A stretch of 64,000 nt of DNA. Origin: Nitrospirota bacterium. Lineage in GTDB: Bacteria > Nitrospirota > Thermodesulfovibrionia > Thermodesulfovibrionales > Dissulfurispiraceae. Location: NCBI GenBank assembly GCA_963710375.1, contig CAVPZX010000002.1:544001-608000 (forward strand), written 5' to 3'. The translations under genes were made by a program, and so were the position numbers. The notes beneath the pieces are model-generated. The model was not told the origin of the DNA and did no database searches. It was given only the letters and a program-made list of their open reading frames with translations. Shown here piece after piece: positions 177 to 15,297 of this stretch. Positions within the stretch are counted from its first letter, which is position 1. Each line of letters starts with the position of its first letter.

Positions 177-278
177 GCGAATAGTGAAACGTGAATAGTG
201 AATGGTAAAGAGTTAAGAAGTGAAAATCAATATACTTGCTTCCAGTCTTTCTTCACCATTCACTTTTCACTATTCACG
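177..278. repeat. Inverted 7-mer tandem repeat hairpin (GTGAAWA/GTGAATG units vs TTCAC units)
   Basis: gcgaatagtgaaacgtgaatagtgaatggt ... ttcaccattcacttttcactattcacg between convergent pilC and pilR. Confidence 0.85.
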
Positions 279-1623
279 TTCCTTTATCCTTCTTATGTTT
301 AGACAGCCGGTAGCGGAATTCTCTGAAAGACAGTCCGAGTAGTTGAGCTGCTTTTGTCTTCACCCCTCCGGCCTTTTCAAGCGCCTTCTCAAGAAAACTC
401 CTTTCCAAAGCACCTAAATATTCATTGATGTTTACTCCGGTATCCGGCAGGTGAGCTACTGAACTGCCCTGGCCCGAAGGTTCCTTGCAGGAAGTACATT
501 TAAGGTAACCATCTTCCGAAAGAATAATTTCCCTTTCAATCATGTTCTTTAGTTCCCTAACATTGCCCCTCAGTTCGTGCTGCAAAACATAATCCACAAA
601 TGCGGGATCAATTTTAAGAATTGTTTTTTGAAACTTTTGGGACAGTCCCCTTGCAAAGTGATCAATGAGGAGAGGAATATCTTCCCTGCGTTCTCTCAGA
701 GAAGGCAATCGGATCTCAAATGTCGAGAGCCGGTAATAAAGGTCCTCCCTGAACTCGTTCTTTTCCGAGAGCTCAGTCAGGTTCTTATTGGTCGCGACAA
801 TTATTCGCACATCCACCTCTATTTCATTGCCGCTGCCGAGCGGCCGCATTTTTTTGTCTTCAAGAAACCGGAGCAATTTTGACTGCAACGGCAACGGCAT
901 CTCTCCGATTTCGTCAAGCAGGAGCGTACCGCCGTCTGCCTCAGCGATGAGCCCTCTCTTGGATTCATAGGCTCCGGTGAAGGCCCCTTTTTTATACCCG
1001 AACAGTTCGCTTTCGAGAAGTTCTGAAGGCAGGCTTGCGCAGTTAATAGCAATAAACGGCTTATCGTTCCTTTTACTCCTGTTGTGAATCGCCTTTGCAA
1101 CAAGCTCCTTGCCTGTGCCGCTTTCACCTGTTATAAGAACATTTGTGTCAAAAGGCGCTATTTTGTCTATTAAGGAAAAGACGGTTTGCATTGCTACAGA
1201 TTTGCCTACAATGCTTTGGTAAACATCAGCATATTGCTGAAGCTCTTTTACCTTTGTCTGCAAAAATATTTTTTCTTTTATGTTTTTTAAAGCAATGCGA
1301 ATCTCATCGATATTAAATGGTTTGGTGACATAATCATAGGCCCCAAGCTTCATGGCGCTTATTGCTGTTTCCGTTGATGCAAATGCCGTTATTATAAGGA
1401 CAACGGTATCAGGGCTGATATCCTTCAGTTCCTTGAGAAGGTCGATGCCTGATCCGTCGCCAAGCCGGAGATCAATAATTGCCAGATCAAAATAGTGCTG
1501 TGCAATCAGCGGCCCTGCTTCAGCGAAACATGACCCCTGATATGTTTCAAAACCGGTTTCGTCCAGAAGGAGTTTTAACGCCTTTCTGATATTCGCTTCA
1601 TCATCGACTATAAGTGCGCGCAT
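274..1623 (-). CDS. pilR: Sigma-54-dependent response regulator PilR (REC-AAA+-HTH)
   Basis: REC domain, GESGTGKE Walker A, GAFTGA, C-terminal SFREFRYRLSK HTH typical of PilR; context. Confidence 0.9.
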   Translation of the reverse strand: MRALIVDDEANIRKALKLLLDETGFETYQGSCFAEAGPLIAQHYFDLAIIDLRLGDGSGIDLLKELKDISPDTVVLIITAFASTETAISAMKLGAYDYVTKPFNIDEIRIALKNIKEKIFLQTKVKELQQYADVYQSIVGKSVAMQTVFSLIDKIAPFDTNVLITGESGTGKELVAKAIHNRSKRNDKPFIAINCASLPSELLESELFGYKKGAFTGAYESKRGLIAEADGGTLLLDEIGEMPLPLQSKLLRFLEDKKMRPLGSGNEIEVDVRIIVATNKNLTELSEKNEFREDLYYRLSTFEIRLPSLRERREDIPLLIDHFARGLSQKFQKTILKIDPAFVDYVLQHELRGNVRELKNMIEREIILSEDGYLKCTSCKEPSGQGSSVAHLPDTGVNINEYLGALERSFLEKALEKAGGVKTKAAQLLGLSFREFRYRLSKHKKDKGT

Positions 1624-1644: not shown

Positions 1645-1732
1645 TGAAGGTGAGCAGATGGGAAGTTGAGAAGTTGAGTAAAGAAATCTTGACAAGTTCA
1701 CACCCTCTCACCTTCTCAACTTCTCAACTTCT
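1645..1732. repeat. Inverted 8-mer tandem repeat hairpin (GAAGTTGA / TCAACTTC)
   Basis: ggaagttgagaagttgag ... ctcaccttctcaacttctcaacttct; right arm overlaps the last codons of pilS. Confidence 0.8.
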
Positions 1733-2871
1733 GTAGTTGTTGGAAAGCTGATCGAAAATCGTGCTCCGCCTAGTGGAGAAGAACCGGCCAAAACTGTTCC
1801 GCCAAAGTTCGTTATTATTCTATAGGCTATTGCGAGTCCCAGACCTGTGCCGTTTGTTTTTGTCGTAAAAAAAGGTTCGAAAATCTTGTCCTGCGCCTCA
1901 TCACTAATGCCGGGGCCGTCATCTTCTATCTCTATACTTGTCTCCTTCCGGTTCTTTCTGAGTACCACCTTAACGGTGCTCCGTGCTGCCTCGACCGCGT
2001 TCTTAATAATATTATTCAGGGCTATTTCGATAAAGGTCCTGTTGGCCATAATTATCGTATCCGCTACAGAAGTTAAAATTATTTTTTTGTCGTTCCTCTT
2101 GTCTTCAACCAGCATCTTAAGCATTGCAGAAAGGTCAACGTCTTCCTTTAAGGCATCTGCCGGCCTCGAAAATAAGAGGAAATCATTAACCAGACTGGTT
2201 AGGCGTTTTGTCTCGGTCATGAGTATATCGACAAACTCTCTGTCAGTCCTTCCCTCATTCAGGAATTGAACTGCAGCCGATATTGAGGCCAAAGGATTCC
2301 TCAGTTCGTGCGCAAGATCTGCGCTTACTCTGTAAAGCCGTTCTAACCCCTGGATTTTTATCCTTTCTTCTTCAAGCCGCCTGATGTAATGTTCCTGCTG
2401 TTCCATCCTTGTTTTCAGGTTATCGCCTGCAAGAGCTATAAGAGAAAAGGCAAAAAGGTGCAGTGAAACATTAAGTATCCCCTCCCTTTCAAATAGAATG
2501 CCATAACTGTAATACACCGTCCCATAAAGAATTGCAGCAATTATTGGAAACAGAAAGATTTTTTTTGTTTTTATCAGAACGGAGGAGAAAAATATCGGGA
2601 ATAGATAAATAAAGGTCAGATATGAATAAATGCCAAAACTTATATATGCTATTGCCGATATAAAGACTATATCAAGCAAAAAGTCGAAATAATTTATTTT
2701 TTCAGTGGCGACGACAAGCCTCAGGAGAACAATAAATATATAAATGACCAAAATGTTTCTAAGACTCGGATTAGCATAAGGCAGGCCAGCTATCTGAAAA
2801 CCTATCAGCAGCGCCAGTGCAAAAATAAAACGCCCGATGCGGTAATAATTGAAAAAAGATGAGGCATACAT
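1708..2871 (-). CDS. pilS: Membrane sensor histidine kinase PilS
   Basis: About 6 N-terminal TM helices, AHELRNPL H-box, DDGPGI and GTGLGL boxes; directly upstream of pilR. Confidence 0.85.
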   Translation of the reverse strand: MYASSFFNYYRIGRFIFALALLIGFQIAGLPYANPSLRNILVIYIFIVLLRLVVATEKINYFDFLLDIVFISAIAYISFGIYSYLTFIYLFPIFFSSVLIKTKKIFLFPIIAAILYGTVYYSYGILFEREGILNVSLHLFAFSLIALAGDNLKTRMEQQEHYIRRLEEERIKIQGLERLYRVSADLAHELRNPLASISAAVQFLNEGRTDREFVDILMTETKRLTSLVNDFLLFSRPADALKEDVDLSAMLKMLVEDKRNDKKIILTSVADTIIMANRTFIEIALNNIIKNAVEAARSTVKVVLRKNRKETSIEIEDDGPGISDEAQDKIFEPFFTTKTNGTGLGLAIAYRIITNFGGTVLAGSSPLGGARFSISFPTTTEVEKLRR

Positions 2872-3003: not shown

Positions 3004-3019
3004 TGGCATGAAAGATGCT
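3004..3019 (+). promoter_or_regulatory. Sigma-54 (-24/-12) promoter of pilA
   Basis: TGGCATGAAAGATGCT fits TGGCAC-N5-TTGC with GG-N10-GC spacing. Confidence 0.8.
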
Positions 3020-3114: not shown

Positions 3115-3546
3115 ATGTCTAAGGTTATTCAGAAAATGAGAACAATCGACGAAAGGGGCTTTACCCTTGTCGAACTGCTCATAGTTATCGCGATCATAGC
3201 TATTCTCGCAGCTATCGCTATCCCTCAGTTCTCAAGCTACCAACAGAGAGGCATCAGGGCCAGCATGCAGTCTGATGCGAGAAATACTGCAACCGTGGAG
3301 GAAGCATATTTTGGAGATAACCAGAGCTATACGGCGATTGGGCCTATGGCCGGGGCATCCCCGGGCGTGTCCTTCGTGATCGGTTCACAGACAGCAAGGA
3401 TGACTGCCCATAACGGCATTCAGGTGCAACAAATGAATAACGGCGGCAACAGCGGATACAACATTCAGGTTTTTAATCCCAATGGAGGATCAGGCTCCAA
3501 CACCTTCTACCAGGATAATACGGGAGTTATGAGCTGGGCTCCTTAA
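3115..3546 (+). CDS. pilA: Type IVa major pilin (128 aa mature)
   Basis: G|FTLVELLIVIAIIAILAAIAIPQF prepilin motif with E5; AAGGAGG RBS; Geobacter-like N-terminal helix. Confidence 0.95.
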   Translation: MSKVIQKMRTIDERGFTLVELLIVIAIIAILAAIAIPQFSSYQQRGIRASMQSDARNTATVEEAYFGDNQSYTAIGPMAGASPGVSFVIGSQTARMTAHNGIQVQQMNNGGNSGYNIQVFNPNGGSGSNTFYQDNTGVMSWAP

Positions 3547-3572
3547 GTTCCTCTGACACTGCAAATACATCT

Positions 3573-5567
3573 GTGCTTAAAGTGGGCGCAAACAGCGCCC
3601 ACTTTAAGTCTCTCTCGAAATCAAAGAATCTCACGTTGCAGCTCTCTACAATCTTTTTATCCACCTTTGCAATCTTCTTATTTTTTCTAACACCCAATGT
3701 GAATACCGGAGACGCTGGGGACCTTATCACTTCCTCTTATTATCTCGGCCTGGCCCACCCTTCCGGTTATCCATTATACCTGCTTGTTGCCAAAACAGTT
3801 ACTCTCTTGCCGTTCGGCAATATAGCCTTTAAAGTTGCCCTTGTATCAGCCTTGTTCAGTTCTCTTTCCCTGACATTATTGTACTGGCTGATATCCTGGC
3901 TGACCTGCAGCCGCGTTGCCGGGTTATTTGCAGCAGCATTGCTACTCGTATCTTATTCTTTTTTTACCCAGTCATTAGTAGCTAAATTTTATTCTCTCAA
4001 TCTGTTTCTGATCTTATCCATATGCGCTGTCTGGCTGTTGCGGATGCGTGATACAGACTTATTCGATGACGAACAAGGTCTTTACGTAACAGCCTTTATT
4101 TTCGGGCTGAGCACAGCCAATCACCACACCGGAATATTGTTGTTGGCTCCTGTGGCGATTGCCCTGTTTACAAGAAAATCAACTTTTAAATTAAAAACAA
4201 TAATAATTGCGATTTCGCTGTTGTTTGCAGGATTTATTATTAATGCATATCTTTTTCTGAGAGGCGGTGAAGACAGATTTTTCACTATTTCATATGTGCG
4301 GGACCTGAGCGATTTTTACGGTGTATTTTTCAGGCAGGTTTATGGAGGCAGCGGCACGCTTACTGCTGCGGCGTCCGCTTTTCAGAATGTTTCCCTATTT
4401 TGGAACGCTATTAAGAATTTCATCTTTGTTTTAACCGCAAATTTCAGTCTGCTTTCATTTCCTCTTTTTTTCGCGGGCATTTATCGACTTCTGAAAAGAG
4501 AGCTTAAGATATTGTTTTTCATGATGTCAGGCCTGCTTGTTTATGGTCCTTTACTAGCAAAGCTCACACTGAGCGAAAAAAATGTATCTGAAAGAGATTA
4601 TTATATTATTGCGCATCAGTATTTTATACCCGCACTTGTTTTTTACGTTTTTTTCGTGGCCATCGGTTTTTATCAAACTGCCGAATGGCTCAAAAAACTG
4701 CCGTTGAAACTTCTTCCAAAAGCCTTACCTGTCATTTTCGCCTTTTTCCCTTTAGTCTTCCTCGTTTCAAGGGCAACCGACAGCGATTATAGAACCAATT
4801 ATGTTCCATACCAATTTACAAAAGACATGTATTCCGTTTTACCCGTAGACAGCGTCTTTTTGACCTTTGGAGACGATCAGGTATTTCAGAGTTTTTACCT
4901 AAAAGAGATCGGCAGGTATCGTGACGATGCATGTCAGCTTGCCGCTGCTGTCAAAAGAGACACCGTATGGAAATTTCAGGGGTGCAACAGAAAAATTTAT
5001 GCCGGCATTTTTCCGGCTGTCTTTACGAAGAATGTAAGAAAGATGGTGCCCCTTATGCTGAAAAACAGATTTTATTCTCCGGATTCGATAACAAAAGACT
5101 TCACCTACAGTAATTATCTATACAGCAGACCGGCATCTTTAATTTATGAATATCTGCCCAAAAAACCTTACGTCGAGAATCAGGAACTTAATGATAGCAG
5201 CATCGATCGGCACATAACCGGTCAAATGAAAAATTCCGCGGACTTAATTAACTATAGCGTTTGCCTGGAGCACTATACCGACGATTACATTACAAGGGCC
5301 AACCAATGTATGAGGTATTTTACTTACTTATTGGAATTTGCAAAGGTATACTCGGGCAAGGAATATGGCAAAACAGGGGAGCGGCTAAAACTCAAATACC
5401 ACATTATTGAGGACCATAAAGACAAAGAGATACGTTCTTATGATATAGCTGTAACAGAAAGAAACCAGCCATATTTAACTGATGCCCTGGATATTAATAA
5501 GCACAATGACTGGAAACTATTCTACATCAGGAGACAGGAACTGGAAGACAACAGATCAGTATTTTAA
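3573..5567 (+). CDS. DUF2723 / TMEM260-like GT-C membrane glycosyltransferase (start uncertain)
   Basis: N-terminal GDAGDL...LGLAHPSGYPLY motif, many TM helices, soluble C-terminal domain. Confidence 0.85.
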   Translation: MLKVGANSAHFKSLSKSKNLTLQLSTIFLSTFAIFLFFLTPNVNTGDAGDLITSSYYLGLAHPSGYPLYLLVAKTVTLLPFGNIAFKVALVSALFSSLSLTLLYWLISWLTCSRVAGLFAAALLLVSYSFFTQSLVAKFYSLNLFLILSICAVWLLRMRDTDLFDDEQGLYVTAFIFGLSTANHHTGILLLAPVAIALFTRKSTFKLKTIIIAISLLFAGFIINAYLFLRGGEDRFFTISYVRDLSDFYGVFFRQVYGGSGTLTAAASAFQNVSLFWNAIKNFIFVLTANFSLLSFPLFFAGIYRLLKRELKILFFMMSGLLVYGPLLAKLTLSEKNVSERDYYIIAHQYFIPALVFYVFFVAIGFYQTAEWLKKLPLKLLPKALPVIFAFFPLVFLVSRATDSDYRTNYVPYQFTKDMYSVLPVDSVFLTFGDDQVFQSFYLKEIGRYRDDACQLAAAVKRDTVWKFQGCNRKIYAGIFPAVFTKNVRKMVPLMLKNRFYSPDSITKDFTYSNYLYSRPASLIYEYLPKKPYVENQELNDSSIDRHITGQMKNSADLINYSVCLEHYTDDYITRANQCMRYFTYLLEFAKVYSGKEYGKTGERLKLKYHIIEDHKDKEIRSYDIAVTERNQPYLTDALDINKHNDWKLFYIRRQELEDNRSVF

Positions 5568-5568
5568 A

Positions 5569-6177
5569 ATGAACCGAAACCGAATTATATCAGCCATGCT
5601 TATATCAGGCACAATAGTGCTCCTGATCATTTTGCGCCTCAGCCTCGACCAGTGGCAGGGGTACGGTAATGGTGTGGAGAGTTTGGGGAAAGAGGATTAT
5701 AAGAGCGCTGTCATGTATTTTGACAGGGTCCTCAATGCCCATATACCATTCAGCCCTCTCGAAAAAAAAGCAAAACTCCGTTTAACCGAGCTTGCATTAA
5801 AATTTGAGAAAGAAAAAAAATATGAACTGGCCCTGGTGTGTTATGAGACAATAAGGACATCAAGATATCTGACACGCCATGTTGCCATTCCTGACAGCAA
5901 GGATATTCCATTTTTGAATGACAGAATTGCTTCTATAAAGGCGCAGCTTCTTGTTAAAGATGGCATGGTTAAGGATTTCAAAGAGGGATACGACCAGCAG
6001 ATGGGTATAATGAACAAGGATTTTTCTCCGTCAGTTTTCTGGTCTGCAGTTGCAGTTGCCGCTTTCTGGGCTTATATTGGATTTATCGTACTTTGGATAT
6101 TCAAAAGAAAGAGGGCTTACATATACATATTCTGCCTGGCACTTATTGTATGGATAACCGGTTTATATTTTGCTTAG
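5569..6177 (+). CDS. Hypothetical membrane protein with a helical (TPR-like) extracytoplasmic region
   Basis: ATG just after the DUF2723 stop; N-terminal TM, two C-terminal TMs. Confidence 0.7.
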   Translation: MNRNRIISAMLISGTIVLLIILRLSLDQWQGYGNGVESLGKEDYKSAVMYFDRVLNAHIPFSPLEKKAKLRLTELALKFEKEKKYELALVCYETIRTSRYLTRHVAIPDSKDIPFLNDRIASIKAQLLVKDGMVKDFKEGYDQQMGIMNKDFSPSVFWSAVAVAAFWAYIGFIVLWIFKRKRAYIYIFCLALIVWITGLYFA

Positions 6178-6279
6178 AATAGACTCCTGGGCTTTTGAAA
6201 GAGGAGGGTCTGCTGGAATGAAAGATGTACTCCGGGACAAAAGCTATACCGGACCGTTACACTTCAGTGCGGCCAGCTC

Positions 6280-7341
6280 ATGAAGAGAGTTTTGATTCTA
6301 AACAGACGCTGCATAAAACATCCGGAAAGAGGGGGGGCGGAGGTCTATACATTTGAGTGTGCAAAGGCGTTGATAGAGCATGGGTACAATGTCGTGTGGT
6401 TTTCTTCGAGGTCCAGTGGACTAGCCGATAAAGAAGAATTAGAGGGGATAACTTTTGTCAGAAAAGGCAATGAACTTACAACACATTTCCATGGTTTTTT
6501 ATATGCCCTGAAAGAGAAAGATTGTTTTATCATAGACGCATTTAATGGCATTGGGTTCTTTACTTTTTTCATGAAAAACTCGATAATCCTGATCCACCAG
6601 ACTTATAATGAATTCTGGACATCTGAATTGGGGTTACTCGGTTATCCATTCAAGTACCTCGAAAAAATCCTGTTACATTTATATAGCGGCAGGCCGGCAA
6701 TCACTGTTTCAGATTCAACATGCCGGGATTTAAAGGAGATCGGATTCAAAAACATCGAAATTATACATAATGGCATTGATATTAAACCATTGGACCATAT
6801 ACCTGAGAAGGAAAGCGCCTTAACGCTGATTTACCTCGGAAGACTTAAGAAAACCAAAAATCCTGAAGATGCAATTAGAGCATTCCTCCGTATAAGAAAC
6901 ACGATTAAAGATGCAAAACTTTGGATCGCAGGAGACGGCCCCCTTTATGGATACCTGACAAAAAAGTATGGACAGTATAGTGATATACATTTTTGGGGAT
7001 TCGTGGAAGACCGGGTGAAGCATGACCTTTTACGGAGGGCCCATTTCCTCCTGGTTCCCAGCATACGCGAGGGATGGGGACTGGTGGTCATAGAGGCCAA
7101 TGCGGCAGGCACCCCTGCAATTGGATACAGGGTCAAAGGGCTCATTGACAGCATTCGGGATGGCCGGACAGGAATACTGGTTGATGACCCTGTCTCCATG
7201 GCGACTCAAGCCATAGTATACTGGCAGGATAAAAAAACGTATGACTCACTTTGCATACAGGCGCTTGAATGGGCAAAGGAGTTTTCCTGGACTAAAACAA
7301 GGAAGCAATTCATTCTCCGCCTTGAGCGAGGGTTATCATGA
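6280..7341 (+). CDS. Glycosyltransferase family 4
   Basis: GGAEVY N-terminal motif, PSIREGWGLVVIEA (EX7E) motif. Confidence 0.9.
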   Translation: MKRVLILNRRCIKHPERGGAEVYTFECAKALIEHGYNVVWFSSRSSGLADKEELEGITFVRKGNELTTHFHGFLYALKEKDCFIIDAFNGIGFFTFFMKNSIILIHQTYNEFWTSELGLLGYPFKYLEKILLHLYSGRPAITVSDSTCRDLKEIGFKNIEIIHNGIDIKPLDHIPEKESALTLIYLGRLKKTKNPEDAIRAFLRIRNTIKDAKLWIAGDGPLYGYLTKKYGQYSDIHFWGFVEDRVKHDLLRRAHFLLVPSIREGWGLVVIEANAAGTPAIGYRVKGLIDSIRDGRTGILVDDPVSMATQAIVYWQDKKTYDSLCIQALEWAKEFSWTKTRKQFILRLERGLS

Positions 7342-8054
7342 AGGCGCTTGTTGTCATACCAACTTACAATGAAGCAAGCACCATTGAAAAAGTCCTGACA
7401 ATGACTCTTAATGCCATGAACTGCCACATTCTTGTTGTGGACGACAATTCATCGGACATGACAAGAGATATTGTCAGACGCTTTTTTGATACTGGGGAAG
7501 TCTCTATGCTGGAACGCCACTCAAAACTGGGGCTCGGCACAGCCTATGTGGAAGGTTTCCAATGGGGTCTTCAAAACGGGCATGATCTTTTTTTTGAGAT
7601 GGATGCTGACAATTCTCACAATCCCGACTCCCTTCCTTCCTTTGTCGAAAAGATAAGAGAAGGATACGACATTGTTGTCGGCTCACGGTATCTCAATCAT
7701 ACTATCAGTGTTGTCGGTTGGGATTTTCGCAGGCTGCTGATCTCCAAGTTCGGAAACTGGTATGCATCCACTCTGCTGGGGTTGAAACAATTTACCGATT
7801 TGACTAGCGGGTACAGGTGTTATACGAGTACGGCACTGAAGACCATCGGTCTTGAAACGATACGATCAAACGGTTACGCATTCCAGATCGAAATGGTATA
7901 TCGCGGCTATAATAAGGGGCTAAGAGTGGCAGAGATACCTATAATATTCTATGAGCGTGGAGGCGGGGGATCGAAAATGAACCGGAAGATCGTACGGGAG
8001 GCAGTGATGTTGCCCTTTAAACTCAGACTAGATGCTATCAGGCATCATTTATAG
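7338..8054 (+). CDS. Polyprenol-phosphate mannose synthase (Dpm1/Ppm1-like GT2)
   Basis: IPTYNE, VDDNS, GLGTAY, MDADNSH, DLTSGYR and GYAFQIE motifs. Confidence 0.9.
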   Translation: MKALVVIPTYNEASTIEKVLTMTLNAMNCHILVVDDNSSDMTRDIVRRFFDTGEVSMLERHSKLGLGTAYVEGFQWGLQNGHDLFFEMDADNSHNPDSLPSFVEKIREGYDIVVGSRYLNHTISVVGWDFRRLLISKFGNWYASTLLGLKQFTDLTSGYRCYTSTALKTIGLETIRSNGYAFQIEMVYRGYNKGLRVAEIPIIFYERGGGGSKMNRKIVREAVMLPFKLRLDAIRHHL

Positions 8055-8100
8055 AGAGCCTTCTGCCAAAATTGCCGAAAACCATGGGAAACAGATAACA

Positions 8101-9663
8101 ATGTCCGATATTGTAAACTCATCTTTAAAAACAGCTGCAAAAGGCACTGTAGTTATCCTGTTCGGTACAGCGGCCAGCAACATCCTATGGTTTACCACAA
8201 AGTTATTGATAATCAGAAGTACGACAGTGGACCAATTGGGCATCTATTCTCTGGTGATCGCCATTATCGGCGTGAGCACGCTAATTGCCAGTCTCGGGAT
8301 CCATGAAGGCGCAACAAAATATATTTCCCAGTTCATCAGTGAGAACAAATTATTCGATGCCGAATCCATACGGAAAACATCTGTTCAAATAGGCATACTA
8401 TCCGGTATAACAGTCTGTACACTGCTTATTCTGCTGGCCGCTCCCATATCCAGATTCGTTTTTTGCAAGCCTGCCCTTTCAAGCCCCTTAAAGGTCGCAG
8501 CTCTTTTCATACCCTTTAATGTCATAACTATCATTATCATCTGGATTCTTAGAGGATATGGATTAATCAGGGCTAAGGTATATTATATTGACATAGGGAT
8601 ACCGCTGGTTTTTCTTTTTTTCCTCTCTATTTTCCTTTACTTCGAACTTCCATTTATCAGTATTCTTTATGCTTATGTCCTGTCTTCAATCATTGTACTA
8701 TGTTCGACCGGCTACTATGGATACAGGGCAATTGGATTAAACCCGCTTTCATTAGGTGGGGGATCACACTACTCTTCACTCTTGAAATTCTCCGGCTCTG
8801 CTTTTCTCCTCAGCTTGATGCAGACTATCTTCTGTTGGACAGACACGCTTATGTTGGGAAGATATGCCGGCCCCGCAGAAGTAGGGATATACAATATTAG
8901 TGTCGTGCTTGCCACCATGCTGACGTTTCCTTTTATAGCGCTTGGATTCGTGTTCATGCCTATCGCCGGAGAAATGTTTGTAAAAAGACAGCTGCCCGAG
9001 CTTAAAAGGACATACCAGGTGCTTACAAAGTGGATATTTACAGCAAGTCTTCCACTTTTTTTCATACTCTTCTTCTTTCCCGAAATGACTATAACATTTC
9101 TTTTTGGAAACCGATTTCTTGATTCTGCACTGCCCCTTCGCATTCTATCCCTGGGTTTTTTGCTTCAGACTCTTATGGGAACAAGTGTCGTCCTTATGAT
9201 GGTTGCAGGCCTTTCTCAGGAAATCAGGAATATTTCAATATTTGGAACTCTTCTGAATCTTGCGCTGAACTATATGCTTATCAAACGCCTCAATTTAGGT
9301 CTTGTGGGAGCGTCGGCAGCGACCATGCTTTCCTATGTCACAATCAGCACCATCAATTTAATCATCCTTCATAAGAGATATGGAATCGAACCTTTTACAT
9401 TCAGGTATATAAGACCTGTTTTCGGCTCAATGTTTGTCGGAGTGATTATATACATTATTGCAAAGGCGCTCCCCCTCTACTTATGGATGCTTCCCCTATA
9501 TTTAATTTTATTTATGACCGGCTATCTTCTCTCATTAATATTGCTGAAAGGCCTTGACAGCGACGATATCTCTATTTTTGAACTAATTTCTGAAAAAACT
9601 GGTTTGAAAATGCAAGGCCTGAGAAGCTTTCTTCATTTGCTGACAGTCAAAAGGACACTTTGA
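8101..9663 (+). CDS. Wzx/MOP-family oligosaccharide flippase
   Basis: About 14 TM helices, WTDTLMLG...VGIYN motif; ATG at 8101 preferred over the overlapping upstream start. Confidence 0.85.
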   Translation: MSDIVNSSLKTAAKGTVVILFGTAASNILWFTTKLLIIRSTTVDQLGIYSLVIAIIGVSTLIASLGIHEGATKYISQFISENKLFDAESIRKTSVQIGILSGITVCTLLILLAAPISRFVFCKPALSSPLKVAALFIPFNVITIIIIWILRGYGLIRAKVYYIDIGIPLVFLFFLSIFLYFELPFISILYAYVLSSIIVLCSTGYYGYRAIGLNPLSLGGGSHYSSLLKFSGSAFLLSLMQTIFCWTDTLMLGRYAGPAEVGIYNISVVLATMLTFPFIALGFVFMPIAGEMFVKRQLPELKRTYQVLTKWIFTASLPLFFILFFFPEMTITFLFGNRFLDSALPLRILSLGFLLQTLMGTSVVLMMVAGLSQEIRNISIFGTLLNLALNYMLIKRLNLGLVGASAATMLSYVTISTINLIILHKRYGIEPFTFRYIRPVFGSMFVGVIIYIIAKALPLYLWMLPLYLILFMTGYLLSLILLKGLDSDDISIFELISEKTGLKMQGLRSFLHLLTVKRTL

Positions 9664-9726: not shown

Positions 9727-10482
9727 ATGACAATTTCAGATAAACTTAAGCGATTTGGCAGAAGCTTATATAGTGCTCCTTTGAACTATCCATTGTCTTT
9801 TCAACTTAAGGATCTGCCGCAAAATATATTTGTGCGGACTGTCAAGGCGATGATTTACAGCTTCCTGGAAAAAGGCTATGAAGTCGTGACAAATGAAAGG
9901 ATTGTCGAGATACCATTTGTTTTTCAAAATCTGGACTTGTCGCAAAAGTCCACCATTCTAGATTTTGGTTGCTGTGAAAGTATGGTGTCCATAGAACTTG
10001 CAAGCTTAGGACATAACGTTACAGGAGTAGACATGAATGAGTATATTTATGAACATCCCAATTTTAACTTTATAAAAATCAATTTCTTGAATAATACGTT
10101 TCATGATGAATACTTTGATGCTATTATTGCTATTTCTGCGATTGAACACTGTGGTCTTCCGGCTTATGGGTTGCAGGAATTTTCAGACGGTGACCATATG
10201 GTCATTAATGAGATGTATAGAATTCTTAAAAAGGATGGGAAAATTGCCCTGACTGTTCCATTCGGGGAAAAAGGGTTGATTGAAGGGCACGTGGGGCAAA
10301 GAATTTATGATTATGATTCATTAATGACGCTGTTAAGCAAATTTAAGATTATTAAGGAAGCCTACTTTATCGGGATAGACAAAAAATATTGGCTGCCATC
10401 TACCAAAGCAGATTTACGCGATTTAAACTCTGCTTCAAAAGGATTTGCGCAAGGGGTCGCGTGTATATATGCGTCAAAATAA
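9727..10482 (+). CDS. Class I SAM-dependent methyltransferase
   Basis: ILDFGC motif I, FDAIIAISAIEH, RILKKDG. Confidence 0.8.
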   Translation: MTISDKLKRFGRSLYSAPLNYPLSFQLKDLPQNIFVRTVKAMIYSFLEKGYEVVTNERIVEIPFVFQNLDLSQKSTILDFGCCESMVSIELASLGHNVTGVDMNEYIYEHPNFNFIKINFLNNTFHDEYFDAIIAISAIEHCGLPAYGLQEFSDGDHMVINEMYRILKKDGKIALTVPFGEKGLIEGHVGQRIYDYDSLMTLLSKFKIIKEAYFIGIDKKYWLPSTKADLRDLNSASKGFAQGVACIYASK

Positions 10483-10508
10483 ACTTATAAATAACCCGGA
10501 GTGAACTC

Positions 10509-11996
10509 TTGGCCGGCAACCCTTCTATTAATAAGCGAGTGTTATTTGTAAATCCTGCAAAAGAAAACGGGTACTATGCTGACCGCATTCATATGGGCTT
10601 TTCACTTCTGGGGCAAATATTGTTAGAGTCAGGTTGCCAGGTAAAGGTAGTAGACTACTCTTTTTTGAAAAGCATTGAATCCGAAACAATGACAATCCCG
10701 CAAATTGAGGATATTATTAAGGATTTTAAACCGGATGTCATAGGAATATCGATTTTCTCATATTTATATGATGAGTCGCAAAAAATGATAGAGCAGGTCG
10801 TCAGATGCTGCAATACTCCAATTATTGTAGGTGGTCCACATGTAACCTTATTTCCCGAAGATTTTTCTAATGATACACGCGTTAGTTACATCGTTAGAGG
10901 TGAAGCTGAAGCCATTATAACCACATTGGTAAATTCCGCCACCCGGGAACTATCGCCGGTATTAATAAACAGCCCTGTCCCAACTCCCGAACAAATACCC
11001 GCAATAAATCTTGATATTGTTCATGAAAGCCGCCATTTAAGAAATTATCAAATACAATTAAGCAGAGGGTGTCCGTTTAATTGCAGTTTTTGCACTATAG
11101 ATTCAATAGCAGGCCGAAAAATGCGCGCACGCGACCTGGACTATTGTCTTGATCAGGTCGTGGAGGCGAAGAGGCGTTACCCTAATATACAGTGTATAGC
11201 AATAACCGATGATTGTCCCACATTTAACGGGGAAAGGTTTAAAGAGTTCTTAAACAAAATCGCTGAAAGAAGGGTTGACGCCTTTCTCACAGTTGATAAT
11301 ATGCGAGCGGATCTTATTGACGAAGAAATGCTCCAACTATATATTAAAGCTGGCGGCCAAAATATTTGTTTGGGTGTTGAGAGTGCGGATCCTGAAGTGT
11401 TTAAAATGGTACATAAAGGTGAATCGCTTGATAAGATAATATATGCAGCCAAGCTGGTTCACAAGTATAATCTCCAATTAGGCCTTTGTTTTGTTATCGG
11501 TTTGCCGGGGGACACTTTGGAAAAAAATAAGGAATCTGTCAAACTGGCAAAAAAATTGAAAGCCGATTACATATTTTGGAATGTATGTGTGCCATGGCCT
11601 GGAACAGAGGTCTATGAGTGGTTCAAAAAAAACGGCAAAATAGGGGATATTCGTAACTTTTCGCCTCTTATCGATTCAAAAATAAATTTTAAAGACCCCC
11701 CTGCCGAATCTAACATCTTCAAAAAAGAGGATATAGTTAAAGCATGGCTGACCGCAAATATGGAAACCTGCAATATCCCAATAATTGCTCTGCGCAACGC
11801 TCGTACCATTCCGGCATTTATGCTGAGATTATTATATTTGACCCGTAGATATAACCTCTATAAATCATCATTTATTTTCATATGGAAACTATTCACGTCT
11901 AAAATGTGGTTTGAGATAAAAAAGAGGCTAAAGGTTTATGTGTGGAAGAGAAGAAGAGAAAAGTTTGCAAAAAATATTCTGTTAAGGATCCCATAA
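10509..11996 (+). CDS. B12-binding radical SAM protein
   Basis: Cobalamin-binding N-domain (DVIGIS, VGGPH), SRGCPFNCSFC CxxxCxxC. Confidence 0.9.
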   Translation: MAGNPSINKRVLFVNPAKENGYYADRIHMGFSLLGQILLESGCQVKVVDYSFLKSIESETMTIPQIEDIIKDFKPDVIGISIFSYLYDESQKMIEQVVRCCNTPIIVGGPHVTLFPEDFSNDTRVSYIVRGEAEAIITTLVNSATRELSPVLINSPVPTPEQIPAINLDIVHESRHLRNYQIQLSRGCPFNCSFCTIDSIAGRKMRARDLDYCLDQVVEAKRRYPNIQCIAITDDCPTFNGERFKEFLNKIAERRVDAFLTVDNMRADLIDEEMLQLYIKAGGQNICLGVESADPEVFKMVHKGESLDKIIYAAKLVHKYNLQLGLCFVIGLPGDTLEKNKESVKLAKKLKADYIFWNVCVPWPGTEVYEWFKKNGKIGDIRNFSPLIDSKINFKDPPAESNIFKKEDIVKAWLTANMETCNIPIIALRNARTIPAFMLRLLYLTRRYNLYKSSFIFIWKLFTSKMWFEIKKRLKVYVWKRRREKFAKNILLRIP

Positions 11997-12000
11997 AGGC

Positions 12001-13122
12001 ATGAACATCGCCGTAGACGCGTTCCCTCTCTCAATGACATTATCTGCGGGAATCTCGAATTATTTAAATAGCATATTGGACAACCTGTTAAGTATTGACA
12101 AAAAAAACCTCTACTTTCTTTTTTGCAAAAATCATTTCCAATTTAATGAGAGAATAAATTTGAGGTTGAGATTCGGGCCTAAGACCGGAAAAAAATCCTT
12201 GTCCTATGTAAACACCTTGTGGCTTTTCAGTATTGGTGTGCGAATGATGAAGAGAGACAAGATTGATATTTTCTGGGGAACAAGGCAAATGCTTCCCCCA
12301 TTTCTTCCAGCCCATACACGAAAGGTGCTTACTGTATATGATATGGTATGGCATTATTTCCCGGAAACGATGGGGAATTACAACCGGCTGGTTTCAGATT
12401 TGCTGGCAATGCGATCCATTAAATCAGCTGACCACATCATAACGATATCTAAAGCCACGGCAGGGGCTCTGACAGAAATTGCAGAAGTTCCACCCCAAAA
12501 GATAAGCGTTGTTTATCCTGCAGCTGATAGCTATAAACCGCTGGATAAGTCAGCCGCAGCCGATTATATTGCAGGGAAGTACAGAACCTCTCTGAAGTAT
12601 ATTCTCACTGTAAGCACTGTAGAGCCTCGGAAAAATTTGATAACTCTGCTCAAGGCATTCGCAGCACTAAAAAATGAGAACGTCCAGCTTCTCATAGCAG
12701 GTGCATCAGGCTGGAAAAATTCAACTATATACTCCGCATATGAAAGACTCGGCTTTTCAGAAAGACAGGTTAAATTCCTAGGATATGTGCCCTACAAAGA
12801 CATGAATAACTTATACTCGGGCGCCTCCCTGTTTGTCTTCCCTTCGATATATGAAGGTTTTGGCATACCGCCTCTTGAAGCCATGGCATCGGGTACGCCT
12901 ATCATCGTATCGAATTCGTCTTCCCTCCCGGAGGTGGCTGGTGAGGCAGGCATACTCCCTGAGCCAATGGATGAAACAGGCTGGCGGAACAGTATACTAA
13001 AAGTGTTGTCGGACGCGTCTCTTCAGGAAGAGATGATAAAAAAAGGCCTTAAGCAGGCAAGTATTTTTTCATGGAAAGAGGCCGCACTACATACTTTGAA
13101 AGTCTTTGAGAAATTTGTTTGA
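12001..13122 (+). CDS. Glycosyltransferase family 4 (mannosyl/rhamnosyltransferase-like)
   Basis: EPRKNL and FPSIYEGFGIPPLEAMASG motifs. Confidence 0.9.
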   Translation: MNIAVDAFPLSMTLSAGISNYLNSILDNLLSIDKKNLYFLFCKNHFQFNERINLRLRFGPKTGKKSLSYVNTLWLFSIGVRMMKRDKIDIFWGTRQMLPPFLPAHTRKVLTVYDMVWHYFPETMGNYNRLVSDLLAMRSIKSADHIITISKATAGALTEIAEVPPQKISVVYPAADSYKPLDKSAAADYIAGKYRTSLKYILTVSTVEPRKNLITLLKAFAALKNENVQLLIAGASGWKNSTIYSAYERLGFSERQVKFLGYVPYKDMNNLYSGASLFVFPSIYEGFGIPPLEAMASGTPIIVSNSSSLPEVAGEAGILPEPMDETGWRNSILKVLSDASLQEEMIKKGLKQASIFSWKEAALHTLKVFEKFV

Positions 13123-13152
13123 ATATATAATCTGATCATTGGGGAGGCTAAT

Positions 13153-14175
13153 TTGATCAAAAAAGCACTTATAACAGGAATCACCGGTCAGGACGGAGCA
13201 TATCTGTCAAAGCTGCTGCTCGAAAAAGGCTATGAGGTGTATGGCGCATTCAGGCGCACTTCTGATCTGAATATGGGCCGCATGAAGTTTCTCGGCATCG
13301 ACAACAATATAGAGTTTGTGCCTCTTGAACTCCTTGAGTTTACCAATATTCAAAAGACACTCGAAGCCATAAAGCCCGACGAGGTCTATAACCTGGGCGC
13401 GCAGAGTTTTGTAGCACTTTCTTTTGAGCAGCCTATTTTTACCGCTGATGTCACAGGCCTTGGCGTACTCAGGATGCTGGAGGCTATACGCGCCGTCAAT
13501 CCCCAGATACGGTTTTATCAGGCATCGAGCAGCGAGATGTTCGGCAAGGTAAGGGAGACTCCCCAGAATGAACAGACACCATTTCATCCGCGGAGCCCTT
13601 ATGCGGCATCGAAACTTTTCGGGCACTGTATGGCTGTAAATTACCGTGAATCATATGACATGTTCGCCTGCTCCGGCATTCTTTTTAATCATGAGTCTCC
13701 CCTGCGGGGACTTGAGTTTGTTACTCGAAAAGTCACTCATGCGGTCGCAAGAATAAAACTGCGACTTCAGGAAAAACTTTCTCTTGGCAATCTGGATTCG
13801 ATGCGTGACTGGGGATATGCCGCAGAATACGTGGAGGCAATGTGGCTTATGCTTCAGCAGTCCAGGCCTGACGATTATGTAATTGCCACGGGTGAAACGC
13901 ACAGCGTCAGGGAGTTTGTGGTGACGGCATTCAGGGAGGCCGGGATCGAGCTGGAATGGACTGGACATGGTATTCACGAAAAAGGTGTAGAAAGGGCGAC
14001 AGGCAAGACTCTCGTTGAAATAGCACCGCAATTCTTCAGACCTGCTGAAGTAGATGTCCTGACAGGGGATTATTCCAAGGCAAAGGCAAAACTAGGATGG
14101 GAACCTAAAACCACTTTTAATGATCTCGTTAAAATTATGGTGCATCATGACATAAGTATTACGGAAAAAGGTTAA
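13153..14175 (+). CDS. gmd: GDP-mannose 4,6-dehydratase
   Basis: [40 protein letters not shown]. Confidence 0.96.
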
Positions 14176-14194
14176 CCTGCATGTATCCTTCCTT

Positions 14195-15297
14195 ATGAAG
14201 ATTCTTCATCTCATTTATGATCATAACAACAATCCCTGGGTCGGCGGCGGGGGAGCAGTAAGGGTCTATGAGATATGCAAAAGGCTTGCCAAACAAGGGC
14301 ATGAAATAACTATCATCAGCGGAAACTATCCAGGCGCTGCCAACTATATTGAAGACGGATTACGGTTCTTGTTTGTGGGCAGCAATAAAAATTACATGTT
14401 GAGCACCTTTTCCTATGCATGGGAAAGCGCTTCGCTGGTTAAAAAAAGGGGGCAAGAATTCGACATTATCATCGAGGATTTTGCCCCCTGGAATCCGGTT
14501 TTCTCAGCATTCCTGACAAAAAAACCTGTTGTGCTTCATATCAATCACCGTGAAGGAATAAATATTCTTAGAAGATGGCGGCTTGTGGGATTACCGTTCT
14601 TTTTGATCGAAAGGTTTTATCCGTTTTTTTTCAAAAACGTGGCTGCCCTCTCGGAGGAGACAAGAAAAAAAATACGTATTGCCGGCGCGAAAATAGTGCC
14701 CGCCGGCATTGATGAAAATTTTTTTATCAATAATAGCGATGTTGCAAACATGATAGGACGATATTTGCTTTACGTTGGAAGACTCCATATCAAAAACAAA
14801 GGGCTCGATACTCTTCTTTGCTCCATGATAGGCCATGATGCTAGATTGCTTATAGCAGGCCGTGGCAAAGATGAGGATTCTCTGAAACAAATGGCCCAAA
14901 GTTTTGGGGTCGAAAACGTGGCTTTTCGCGGTTTTGTCGGAGAGGAAGAAAAAGAGACCTGCTGCGGAACTGTCAGGCACTGGTCTTACCGTCGAGATTT
15001 GAGGGCTGGGGTATTGTTGTTCTTGAGGCCGCTGCGTGCGGAAAACCGGTTATAGTAAGCGATATCCCTGAACTGGGGTATGCTGTTGAAGCAGGGTTCG
15101 GCATATCATTCAAGACAGGGGATTCGAAAGACCTTGCCCAGAAAATAAAATTTCTCATCGAAAATGAACCTCTGAGAACGGAGATGGGGCGGAAAGCTCG
15201 CGAATATGCTAAGGACTACACATGGGACAAGATATCGCTCGATTATGAACGGTTTCTGCTGAAAATAATAAAAGACAGGCAAATGACAAAAGGCTAA
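14195..15297 (+). CDS. Glycosyltransferase family 4, frameshifted near 14950
   Basis: N-half in one frame; C-half (LPSRFEGWGIVVLEAAACGKPV...) continues in the -1 frame to TAA 15295-15297; one A missing in the A5 run 14949-14953. Confidence 0.85.

Follow-up and report, generated by a model that had tools for sequence, protein, structure and literature searches.

The window analysed here is a stretch of 64,000 nucleotides from a Nitrospirota bacterium (order Thermodesulfovibrionales, family Dissulfurispiraceae; assembly GCA_963710375.1, contig CAVPZX010000002.1, positions 544,001 to 608,000 of the forward strand), and the system in question is a gene cluster near its start, in which pilA, encoding a type IV pilin, stands directly ahead of a gene for a membrane glycosyltransferase of the DUF2723/TMEM260 family. 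An earlier note, made from the sequence alone, had read the gene order as pilA, DUF2723, a small membrane protein (orf5 below), a GT4 and a Dpm1/Ppm1-type GT2, and had proposed a pilin O-mannosylation system. This gene order is confirmed by Pfam and PDB matches (Table 1). The gene unit is larger than the segment from 3115 to 8054 considered there, with divergent pilS-pilR upstream and glycan genes downstream to about 15300, and the cluster is bounded by bamA; in relatives, skp and lpx genes come next. The closest named homologues are from Nitrospirota, Thermodesulfovibrionales, and the source genome holds one DUF2723 gene and about 18 pilin-like open reading frames (ORFs) in 3.19 Mb.

Table 1. 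Genes and control elements of the pilA cluster, with positions counted in the window
Feature	Position	Strand	Basis
pilR-like sigma-54 response regulator	274..1623	-	Pfam Sigma54_activat and Response_reg
pilS-like histidine kinase	1708..2871	-	Pfam HisKA, HATPase_c, weak 6TM_PilS
Sigma-54-type -24/-12 box, predicted pilA promoter	3004..3019	+	Sole pattern match in the window
pilA, major type IVa pilin, predicted glycan acceptor	3115..3546	+	PF07963; NF041775 below cut-off
Perfect 14-bp hairpin, terminator/attenuator-like, between pilA and transferase gene	3576..3608	+	z -4.8, 0/200 shuffles
DUF2723/TMEM260-like (GT117) GT-C transferase, from its likely start	3636..5567	+	PF11028, TMEM260 match
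orf5, 202-aa membrane protein with three transmembrane segments, predicted partner subunit	5569..6177	+	Hydropathy, model
GT4 glycosyltransferase	6280..7341	+	PF00534
Dpm1/Ppm1-type GT2, predicted polyprenol-phosphate-mannose synthase	7338..8054	+	PfDPMS E 1e-26
Wzx-type flippase	8032..9663	+	PF01943/PF13440
S-adenosylmethionine methyltransferase, B12 radical SAM, GT4, Gmd, GT4 (variable glycan genes)	9727..15055	+	Pfam/NCBIfam

The transferase matches PF11028 at E 9e-26 (91 bits, against a curated cut-off of 24.2), carries the motifs GDAGD and HPSGYPLY, and retrieves a single PDB sequence at E <= 10, that of human TMEM260 (9rql; E 5.7e-30, residues 26-434), in a match that spans the GT-C core and the start of the Rossmann-like domain. 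Its structural model (mean predicted local distance difference test, pLDDT, 86) shows transmembrane (TM) helices followed, from residue 428, by the alternating strands and helices of a Rossmann-like domain, and all 22 Foldseek matches with E <= 0.001 are GT-C enzymes, with 9RQL absent among the matches listed. NCBIfam returned no match and no plasmid record matched; no Wzy_C domain was found in the transferase (Pfam, E 0.01). Alignment with the human enzyme (CAZy GT117; structures PDB 9RQL, 9RQM and 9RQN) equates human D52, H67, R264, Y267 and D441 with D47, H62, R254, Y257 and D434 of the window protein, numbered from 3573, where the longest ORF opens. In TMEM260, according to bioRxiv 10.64898/2026.03.17.711096, D441 serves as the catalytic base, donor binding requires D52, H67, R264 and Y267, and a TPR domain recruits the acceptor. 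All five residues are invariant in the 22 members of the window's clade, and in the sister clade (n = 26) D47, R254 and D434 are present in every member, Y257 in 25 and H62 in 22. The Asp of GDAGD, which the earlier note had singled out as a possible catalytic residue, does equal an essential human residue, D52, but this residue positions the donor, and the catalytic role falls to the counterpart of D441. We found no C-terminal TPR domain in the transferase (no Pfam TPR; the model ends in a beta-hairpin and a helix), and TPRs were detected (E < 1e-3) in 0/22 members of the window clade and 0/26 of the sister linked clade, compared with 36 of the 87 other members. Judged on its sequence, the gene that follows pilA encodes a genuine TMEM260/GT117 homologue. 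Profile, fold and catalytic residues place its product in the TMEM260-like family, as a bacterial branch rather than an orthologue with the same acceptor, because the TPR domain is missing.

The conserved linkage to pilA foreseen in the earlier note is borne out within the order. Across 251 genomes, each at least 80% complete, PF11028 occurs in 40 genomes (44 genes in all), and a pilin gene ends no more than 400 nt upstream of the conserved transferase motif in 41 of the 44, the genes without such a pilin being those of G109, G015 and G090. Chance adjacency of the two genes is below 1%, given the number of pilin-like ORFs in the source genome, and the pilins linked to the transferase are very diverse in sequence. 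The hairpin between the two genes was missed by a simple terminator scan because its tail is not T-rich; terminator-like stems of at least 8 bp are present in 33 of 49 measurable pilin-to-transferase gaps (13 gaps were excluded as too short), against 0.9 expected. Since the hairpin occupies 3576-3608, translation of the transferase likely starts at TTG 3636. The -24/-12 pattern ahead of pilA, which we take to be the sigma-54 consensus, is not peculiar to the window: in 11 of 12 relatives checked, a sigma-54-type box likewise precedes the major pilin.

Across phyla, we analysed the best 80 of at least 586 confirmed GTDB pattern-scan loci, a sample biased to close relatives, of which 71 had enough flank to be usable. 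A pilin lies directly upstream in 26/71 and directly downstream in 1/71, the linked loci belonging to Nitrospirota, Aquificota, one Desulfobacterales genome and Patescibacteria. The full pilin-transferase-orf5-GT4-synthase cassette recurs at three Aquificota loci and one Desulfobacterales locus (L055, L056, L086 and L060), with GT4s 56-62% and synthases 55-62% identical to those of the window; some cassettes are reduced to pilin, transferase and orf5 only, and minimal cassettes at L052, L058 and L143-L145 have no adjacent Wzx. In Patescibacteria, the transferase gene sits inside pilB-pilT-pilC-pilA-pilD operons, beside a YfhO-family gene. Five loci titled Gammaproteobacteria (L067, L073, L082, L104 and L125) group with the Patescibacteria loci by gene order and proteins; their titles may be wrong, and they were not counted as Proteobacteria. 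In a FastTree phylogeny of 135 proteins, from which four duplicate loci and all proteins shorter than 450 aa had been dropped, the linked members form one large group and separate Patescibacteria groups, alongside many lineages that are not linked. In other classes of the phylum, DUF2723 occurs in multiple copies without pilin linkage. Because single-linkage clustering lumped GT-C, TPR and methyltransferase genes too broadly, counts were made with hidden Markov models. The expectation that the locus would give bacterial DUF2723 proteins a substrate would apply to the pilin-linked clades and not generally (27/71 cross-phylum loci are pilin-adjacent). Elsewhere in the family, clusters of DUF2723 paralogues in another class of the phylum (L170, L172, L173 and L177) lie beside multiheme cytochrome, NHL-repeat and peptidyl-prolyl isomerase genes, so that secreted cytochromes could be acceptors there, and in Peregrinibacteria/Gracilibacteria (L066, L070, L102 and L117) two DUF2723 genes flank a large SLH/Ig-like surface-protein gene, a candidate second acceptor class.

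Two further genes track the linked transferase across the order. orf5 is present in 38/251 genomes and the synthase (counted at E <= 1e-60) in 48/251, and each is found in 36 of the 37 genomes whose transferase is pilin-linked, compared with 2/214 and 12/214 of the others, respectively. The association of DUF2723 and pilA with a Dpm1/Ppm1 gene that the earlier note had proposed to count is therefore real, and both associations hold even when the genes are separated by kilobases or lie on different contigs. The one linked genome missing from the count, G286, is a 300-contig assembly, and the three genomes with unlinked DUF2723 have neither gene. The orf5 product has three TM segments by hydropathy and an all-helical model (pLDDT 94) with a weakly TPR-like loop domain; its TPR similarity is sub-threshold only, with non-significant and mostly TPR-type Foldseek matches (best E 0.098), and an Atlas search gave unnamed clusters, commonest in Myxococcota, with TPR only below 0.8. 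That both linked clades lack TPRs while 36/87 other members have them suggests that orf5 may supply acceptor binding in trans, as a TPR-like partner. In family f2, orf5 adjoins the synthase rather than the transferase, and it could serve the synthase instead.

With respect to the donor, the synthase is a GT2 with a DxD motif, closest to DPMS/Ppm1, and its best solved relative is Pyrococcus DPMS (PfDPMS). It is the genome's best match to the lnt-linked Ppm1 of Tsukamurella (39% identity) and groups with actinobacterial Ppm1, apart from the genome's other GT2s (FastTree support 0.86); its best matches in a plasmid collection are from Bacteroidota and actinobacteria, the named ones being annotated as polyprenol monophosphomannose synthase. 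Sub-threshold matches also include AglJ and PpgS, enzymes using other sugars. Orthologues adjoin ManC in G038 and G262, ManC is encoded elsewhere in the source genome, and Gmd lies inside the cluster; mannose is our best guess for the donor sugar. A comparable donor module is seen on the Pseudomonas asturiensis plasmid pCC1524 (L288), where GT4, GtrA, a polyprenol-P-mannose synthase and a 494-aa hypothetical protein stand together next to genes for type I secretion and for a large DUF4214 protein, and where it possibly serves a secreted protein.

The cluster encodes three GT4s and one flippase, and no initiating phosphoglycosyl transferase, Wzy polymerase or ligase was found among its genes by Pfam and similar searches. 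Elsewhere in the genome there are three Bac_transf genes, and Wzy_C genes lie on other contigs. Eight related clusters hold 94 genes, of which the 40 unassigned ones were scanned and yielded no initiating transferase (E 1e-12), the rest being assigned by BLAST clusters. The cluster's last GT4 (14195-15290) has a frameshift close to a short run of A at about 14950, through either an assembly error or pseudogenization. The GT4 slot behind orf5 is filled by GT9 or empty in some relatives, and Wzx copies 41-55% identical are found in many linked clusters. GT4 and GT9 enzymes use cytoplasmic nucleotide sugars; therefore, if they act on this glycan, they would extend the lipid-linked sugar before transfer. 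We read the exchange of GT4 for GT9, its absence in some relatives and the existence of bare cassettes as a mannose core with optional extension, so the glycan may be a short mannose-initiated oligosaccharide rather than the +162 Da of the earlier note. A single mannose is now one of two outcomes, with GT4/GT9 and Wzx accompanying the cassette and a Gln at the position of the mannose-contacting human R355.

The position behind pilA is exchangeable within the window's family. We located 44 genomes with a pilA-like gene (43 plus G012), of which 39 were readable downstream, the others comprising 3 that ended at a contig edge and 2 whose sequence was not retrieved. Immediately behind the pilin or pilins, 9 of the 39 have DUF2723 and 7 an STT3/PglB-like gene; 5 have a TM+TPR GT-C-like gene, 3 a member of a third, unclassified membrane family accompanied by sugar genes, and 1 a lone GT2. 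The remainder have a short pilin together with genes for a small protein and a permease-like product (2), minor pilins (3) or unrelated genes (9). The STT3-like gene of G012 was identified by Pfam and PDB, the other six are 38-48% identical to it, and in G012 the same GT4 (51%) and synthase (67%) are retained behind it. This swap with a known protein-glycosyltransferase family is the strongest contextual sign that the position is a pilin-glycosylation slot.

Several of these arrangements deserve description in their own right. In the seven STT3-type genomes (L225, which is G012, L266 and L271-L275), tandem Cys-rich pilins precede the STT3/PglB-like oligosaccharyltransferase gene, and the G012-type STT3 is a candidate for a pilin-dedicated enzyme using a monophosphate-linked glycan. 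At L262-L265 and L245, pilA is followed by the TM+TPR GT-C-like gene, whose product has a WDD loop motif, and L262-L265 carry a different GT2, 26-32% identical to the window synthase. This TM+TPR family is possibly TMTC- or TfpW-like; its profile matches only TPR proteins among the PDB matches listed, and it matches the DUF2723 profile distantly (HHalign 96%). The source genome itself has a TM+TPR GT-C-like gene flanked by a second pilin gene and three minor-pilin-like genes that run in the opposite direction (G000:C2:823875-828508), and several more such GT-C-like genes are clustered on C5. At L160, L267 and L280, pilA is followed by a membrane protein of 580-610 aa with a D..WxHL loop motif and by amino-sugar biosynthesis genes; the protein had no Pfam hit where scanned and is a candidate third pilin transferase family. 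At L253 and L255, the pilin is very short (60 aa), and genes for a small secreted protein and a permease-like product come next, an arrangement that we take to resemble the Geobacter split pilin.

The pilin sequence itself is less informative than the earlier note had assumed. PilA has an N-methyl motif and a mature length of 128 aa, and the description of it as Gly- and Asn-rich (12/75 and 10/75 of the globular part), devoid of Cys and ending in Pro is correct, but Ser and Thr make up only 17%, a value at the low end of the range among linked pilins (0.17), and composition is no evidence for glycosylation. Ser/Thr content and absence of Cys were rejected as diagnostic, and the human sequon was rejected as a general rule for them. 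TfpO requires a C-terminal Ser on its pilin; such a residue is present in only 2 of 65 linked pilins. Ser alone is higher in linked pilins (0.13 versus 0.05, nominal P = 0.002), a post hoc comparison among kin on which we do not rely. A GG-x2-S/T motif, seen in 9/9 linked and 3/7 unlinked pilins of the family, is a lead only.

Among characterised systems, the locus resembles in layout the group IV pilA-tfpW pair of Pseudomonas aeruginosa. As described in bioRxiv 10.1101/2020.04.19.049825 and PMC11841053, a GT-C gene there stands right behind pilA after a terminator, and its product shares with the window system, as predicted here, an 11-TM layout, a periplasmic C-terminal domain, a polyprenyl-phosphate-sugar donor and Ser/Thr O-glycans; it differs in its D-arabinofuranose, its DDX and YX6PFX7P motifs and its own TPR domain. 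PMC11841053 also describes a terminator behind the pilin in Pseudomonas pilin-accessory cassettes, as in the hairpin layout here. Here, with TfpW compared by description only, the loop motif reads GDxGE...AHPxGYPLY and the donor gene is of Ppm1 type, and the first-loop motif, not being DDX, argues for a different family; no D-arabinofuranose donor genes (DprE1/E2) were found by Pfam among the genes of the cluster, to which this search was confined. By analogy, the system most likely works like Pseudomonas pilA-tfpW. TfpO/PilO and PglL (Wzy_C family) also O-glycosylate pilins, and tfpO also lies directly behind pilA, but they belong to another family and their donors are pyrophosphate-linked glycans. 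In the actinobacterial Ppm1-Pmt system of protein O-mannosylation (PMC5882110), a Ppm1-type synthase likewise feeds an extracytoplasmic GT-C enzyme acting on proteins, but Pmt is a GT39 enzyme of a general system, whereas here a GT117 is tied to a pilin gene. Compared with human TMEM260, the window protein shares the Pfam family and the five residues, so that a lipid-monophosphate donor is expected; it differs in the missing TPR domain, in R355, in its predicted acceptor (pilin rather than IPT domain, with the human sequon missing from the window pilin) and in its companions, since O-mannose is not extended in human and here orf5, GT4/GT9 and Wzx accompany the enzyme. The available portion of PMC10214176 mentions "distant homologs in bacteria" of TMEM260 and says nothing more on bacteria, and a literature search, with subscription papers and preprint supplements outside its scope, found nothing linking DUF2723, GT117 or TMEM260 to pili.

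Taken together, we consider it fairly likely that the transferase O-glycosylates Ser/Thr residues of the pilin with a mannose-based sugar from a polyprenol-phosphate carrier, the predicted product of the neighbouring Ppm1-type synthase. That the pilin is the acceptor appears highly likely; given a pilin acceptor, mannose is a likely reducing-end sugar, and an extended rather than a single sugar in this genome has roughly an even chance. In the mechanism that we propose, PilS/PilR and sigma-54 would drive pilA, with the hairpin passing a fraction of transcripts into the genes behind it. The Ppm1-type enzyme would make polyprenol-P-mannose from GDP-mannose, the GT4s and modifying enzymes would probably extend the sugar on the cytoplasmic face, and Wzx would flip the product, with a single mannose used in minimal cassettes. 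Periplasmic D434 would then activate a pilin hydroxyl for inverting transfer, as in TMEM260, and orf5 may provide in trans the acceptor-gripping helical domain that is missing from the clade. Archaea build oligosaccharides on dolichol phosphate. More tentatively, and with some doubt, a variable oligosaccharide built on a Ppm1-started monophosphate lipid and flipped by Wzx might be moved en bloc to the pilin by a two-subunit GT117, with orf5 as the TPR-like acceptor module.

Several observations weigh against this reading. Human R355, which contacts mannose and whose alanine mutant keeps about 20% (bioRxiv 10.64898/2026.03.17.711096), aligns to Q349, a Gln in 22/22 of the window clade; the alignment is only moderate there, and the column is uncertain in distant clades. 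Across the 119 labelled tips of the tree, linkage switches state only 6 times, so the 41/44 are kin and independent linkage events are few; 44 of the 71 cross-phylum loci have no adjacent pilin (6 with one within 3.2 kb, 38 with none), and in G001 the closest pilA is not followed by the transferase despite a contig-cut copy in the genome. Ser+Thr content does not differ between linked and unlinked pilins (0.27 versus 0.24, P = 0.41; 9 versus 7), the core of the human sequon (GGxxxT/S) occurs in 10/65 linked pilins and not in that of the window, and 43/65 contain Cys. On the donor side, the Ppm1 used for comparison owes its own name to annotation and synteny, and the synthase shares only 39% identity with it; several other TM+TPR GT-C-like genes in the genome possibly share the transferase's donor. 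The sister clade also lacks detectable TPRs, yet its orf5 is often far from the transferase or beside the synthase.

The alternative that survives best, though we regard it as unlikely, is that the pilin receives a non-mannose sugar or a pyrophosphate-linked Wzx-pathway oligosaccharide begun by a phosphoglycosyl transferase elsewhere, following a TfpO/PglL-like logic, with the Ppm1-type enzyme serving other GT-C proteins. This would suit the Wzx genes that come next after the transferase at several loci of the sister clade, where the sugar clusters are large and variable, the loss of R355, the three Bac_transf genes and the presence of the synthase in 10 genomes without orf5 or DUF2723, in some of them beside other GT-C-like genes. 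It fits poorly with a synthase that tracks the linked transferase in 36/37 genomes, with minimal cassettes that have no adjacent Wzx, with the retained R264/Y267 pair, which binds phosphate in a monophosphate-donor enzyme, and with the lack of an initiating transferase in the window cluster and among the 40 scanned genes of related clusters.

Less probable again is a target other than the pilin, namely lipid A or the lipopolysaccharide core (as with ArnT) or periplasmic proteins in general, the pilA site then being a recombination hot spot for surface-glycan genes. The transferase gene nearly always comes first after the pilin, shares its strand and lies beyond a terminator-like hairpin, and it does so in several chromosomal settings, the Patescibacteria pil operons included; this argues against such a target, as do the protein O-transferase activity of the only sequence-level solved relative and the STT3/PglB-like genes that otherwise hold the slot. 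Points in its favour are the extension of the cluster to bamA, with skp and lpx genes next in relatives, the heptosyltransferase family membership of GT9 and the many family members elsewhere beside S-layer/Ig-like or cytochrome genes. Finally, a non-catalytic, TfpY-like role in pilus assembly or as a chaperone, with or without residual transferase activity, is highly improbable with five essential residues invariant in 22/22 and a co-occurring donor synthase, even though non-glycosylating accessory genes occupy the Pseudomonas slot (PMC11841053) and orf5 has three TM segments like TfpY-like proteins, from which its fold description differs.

The locus thus probably represents a conserved and undescribed variant of pilin glycosylation, with TfpW compared by description only, and would add a route beside TfpO, TfpW and PglL. 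Within one bacterial family, at least four families of membrane transferase can be exchanged in the slot behind pilA, as would suit a role in protecting pili against phages, which is shown for TfpO and TfpW (PMC11841053). TMEM260 is a disease enzyme in humans, and its bacterial homologues are without a substrate in the literature searched; a pilin acceptor, donor synthase and partner in one short operon would make a directly testable bacterial model of the family. A profile search returned over 16,000 clusters (50% identity) at E <= 1e-10, not all necessarily of the DUF2723 family. Bacteroides thetaiotaomicron has PF11028, and Bacteroides has a 41% identical Ppm1-type relative; if the more tentative en bloc reading is true, GT117 would be a candidate for the Bacteroidota O-oligosaccharyltransferase, described as unknown in PMC8729774, and would constitute a widespread bacterial family of protein O-transferases whose acceptors differ by clade.

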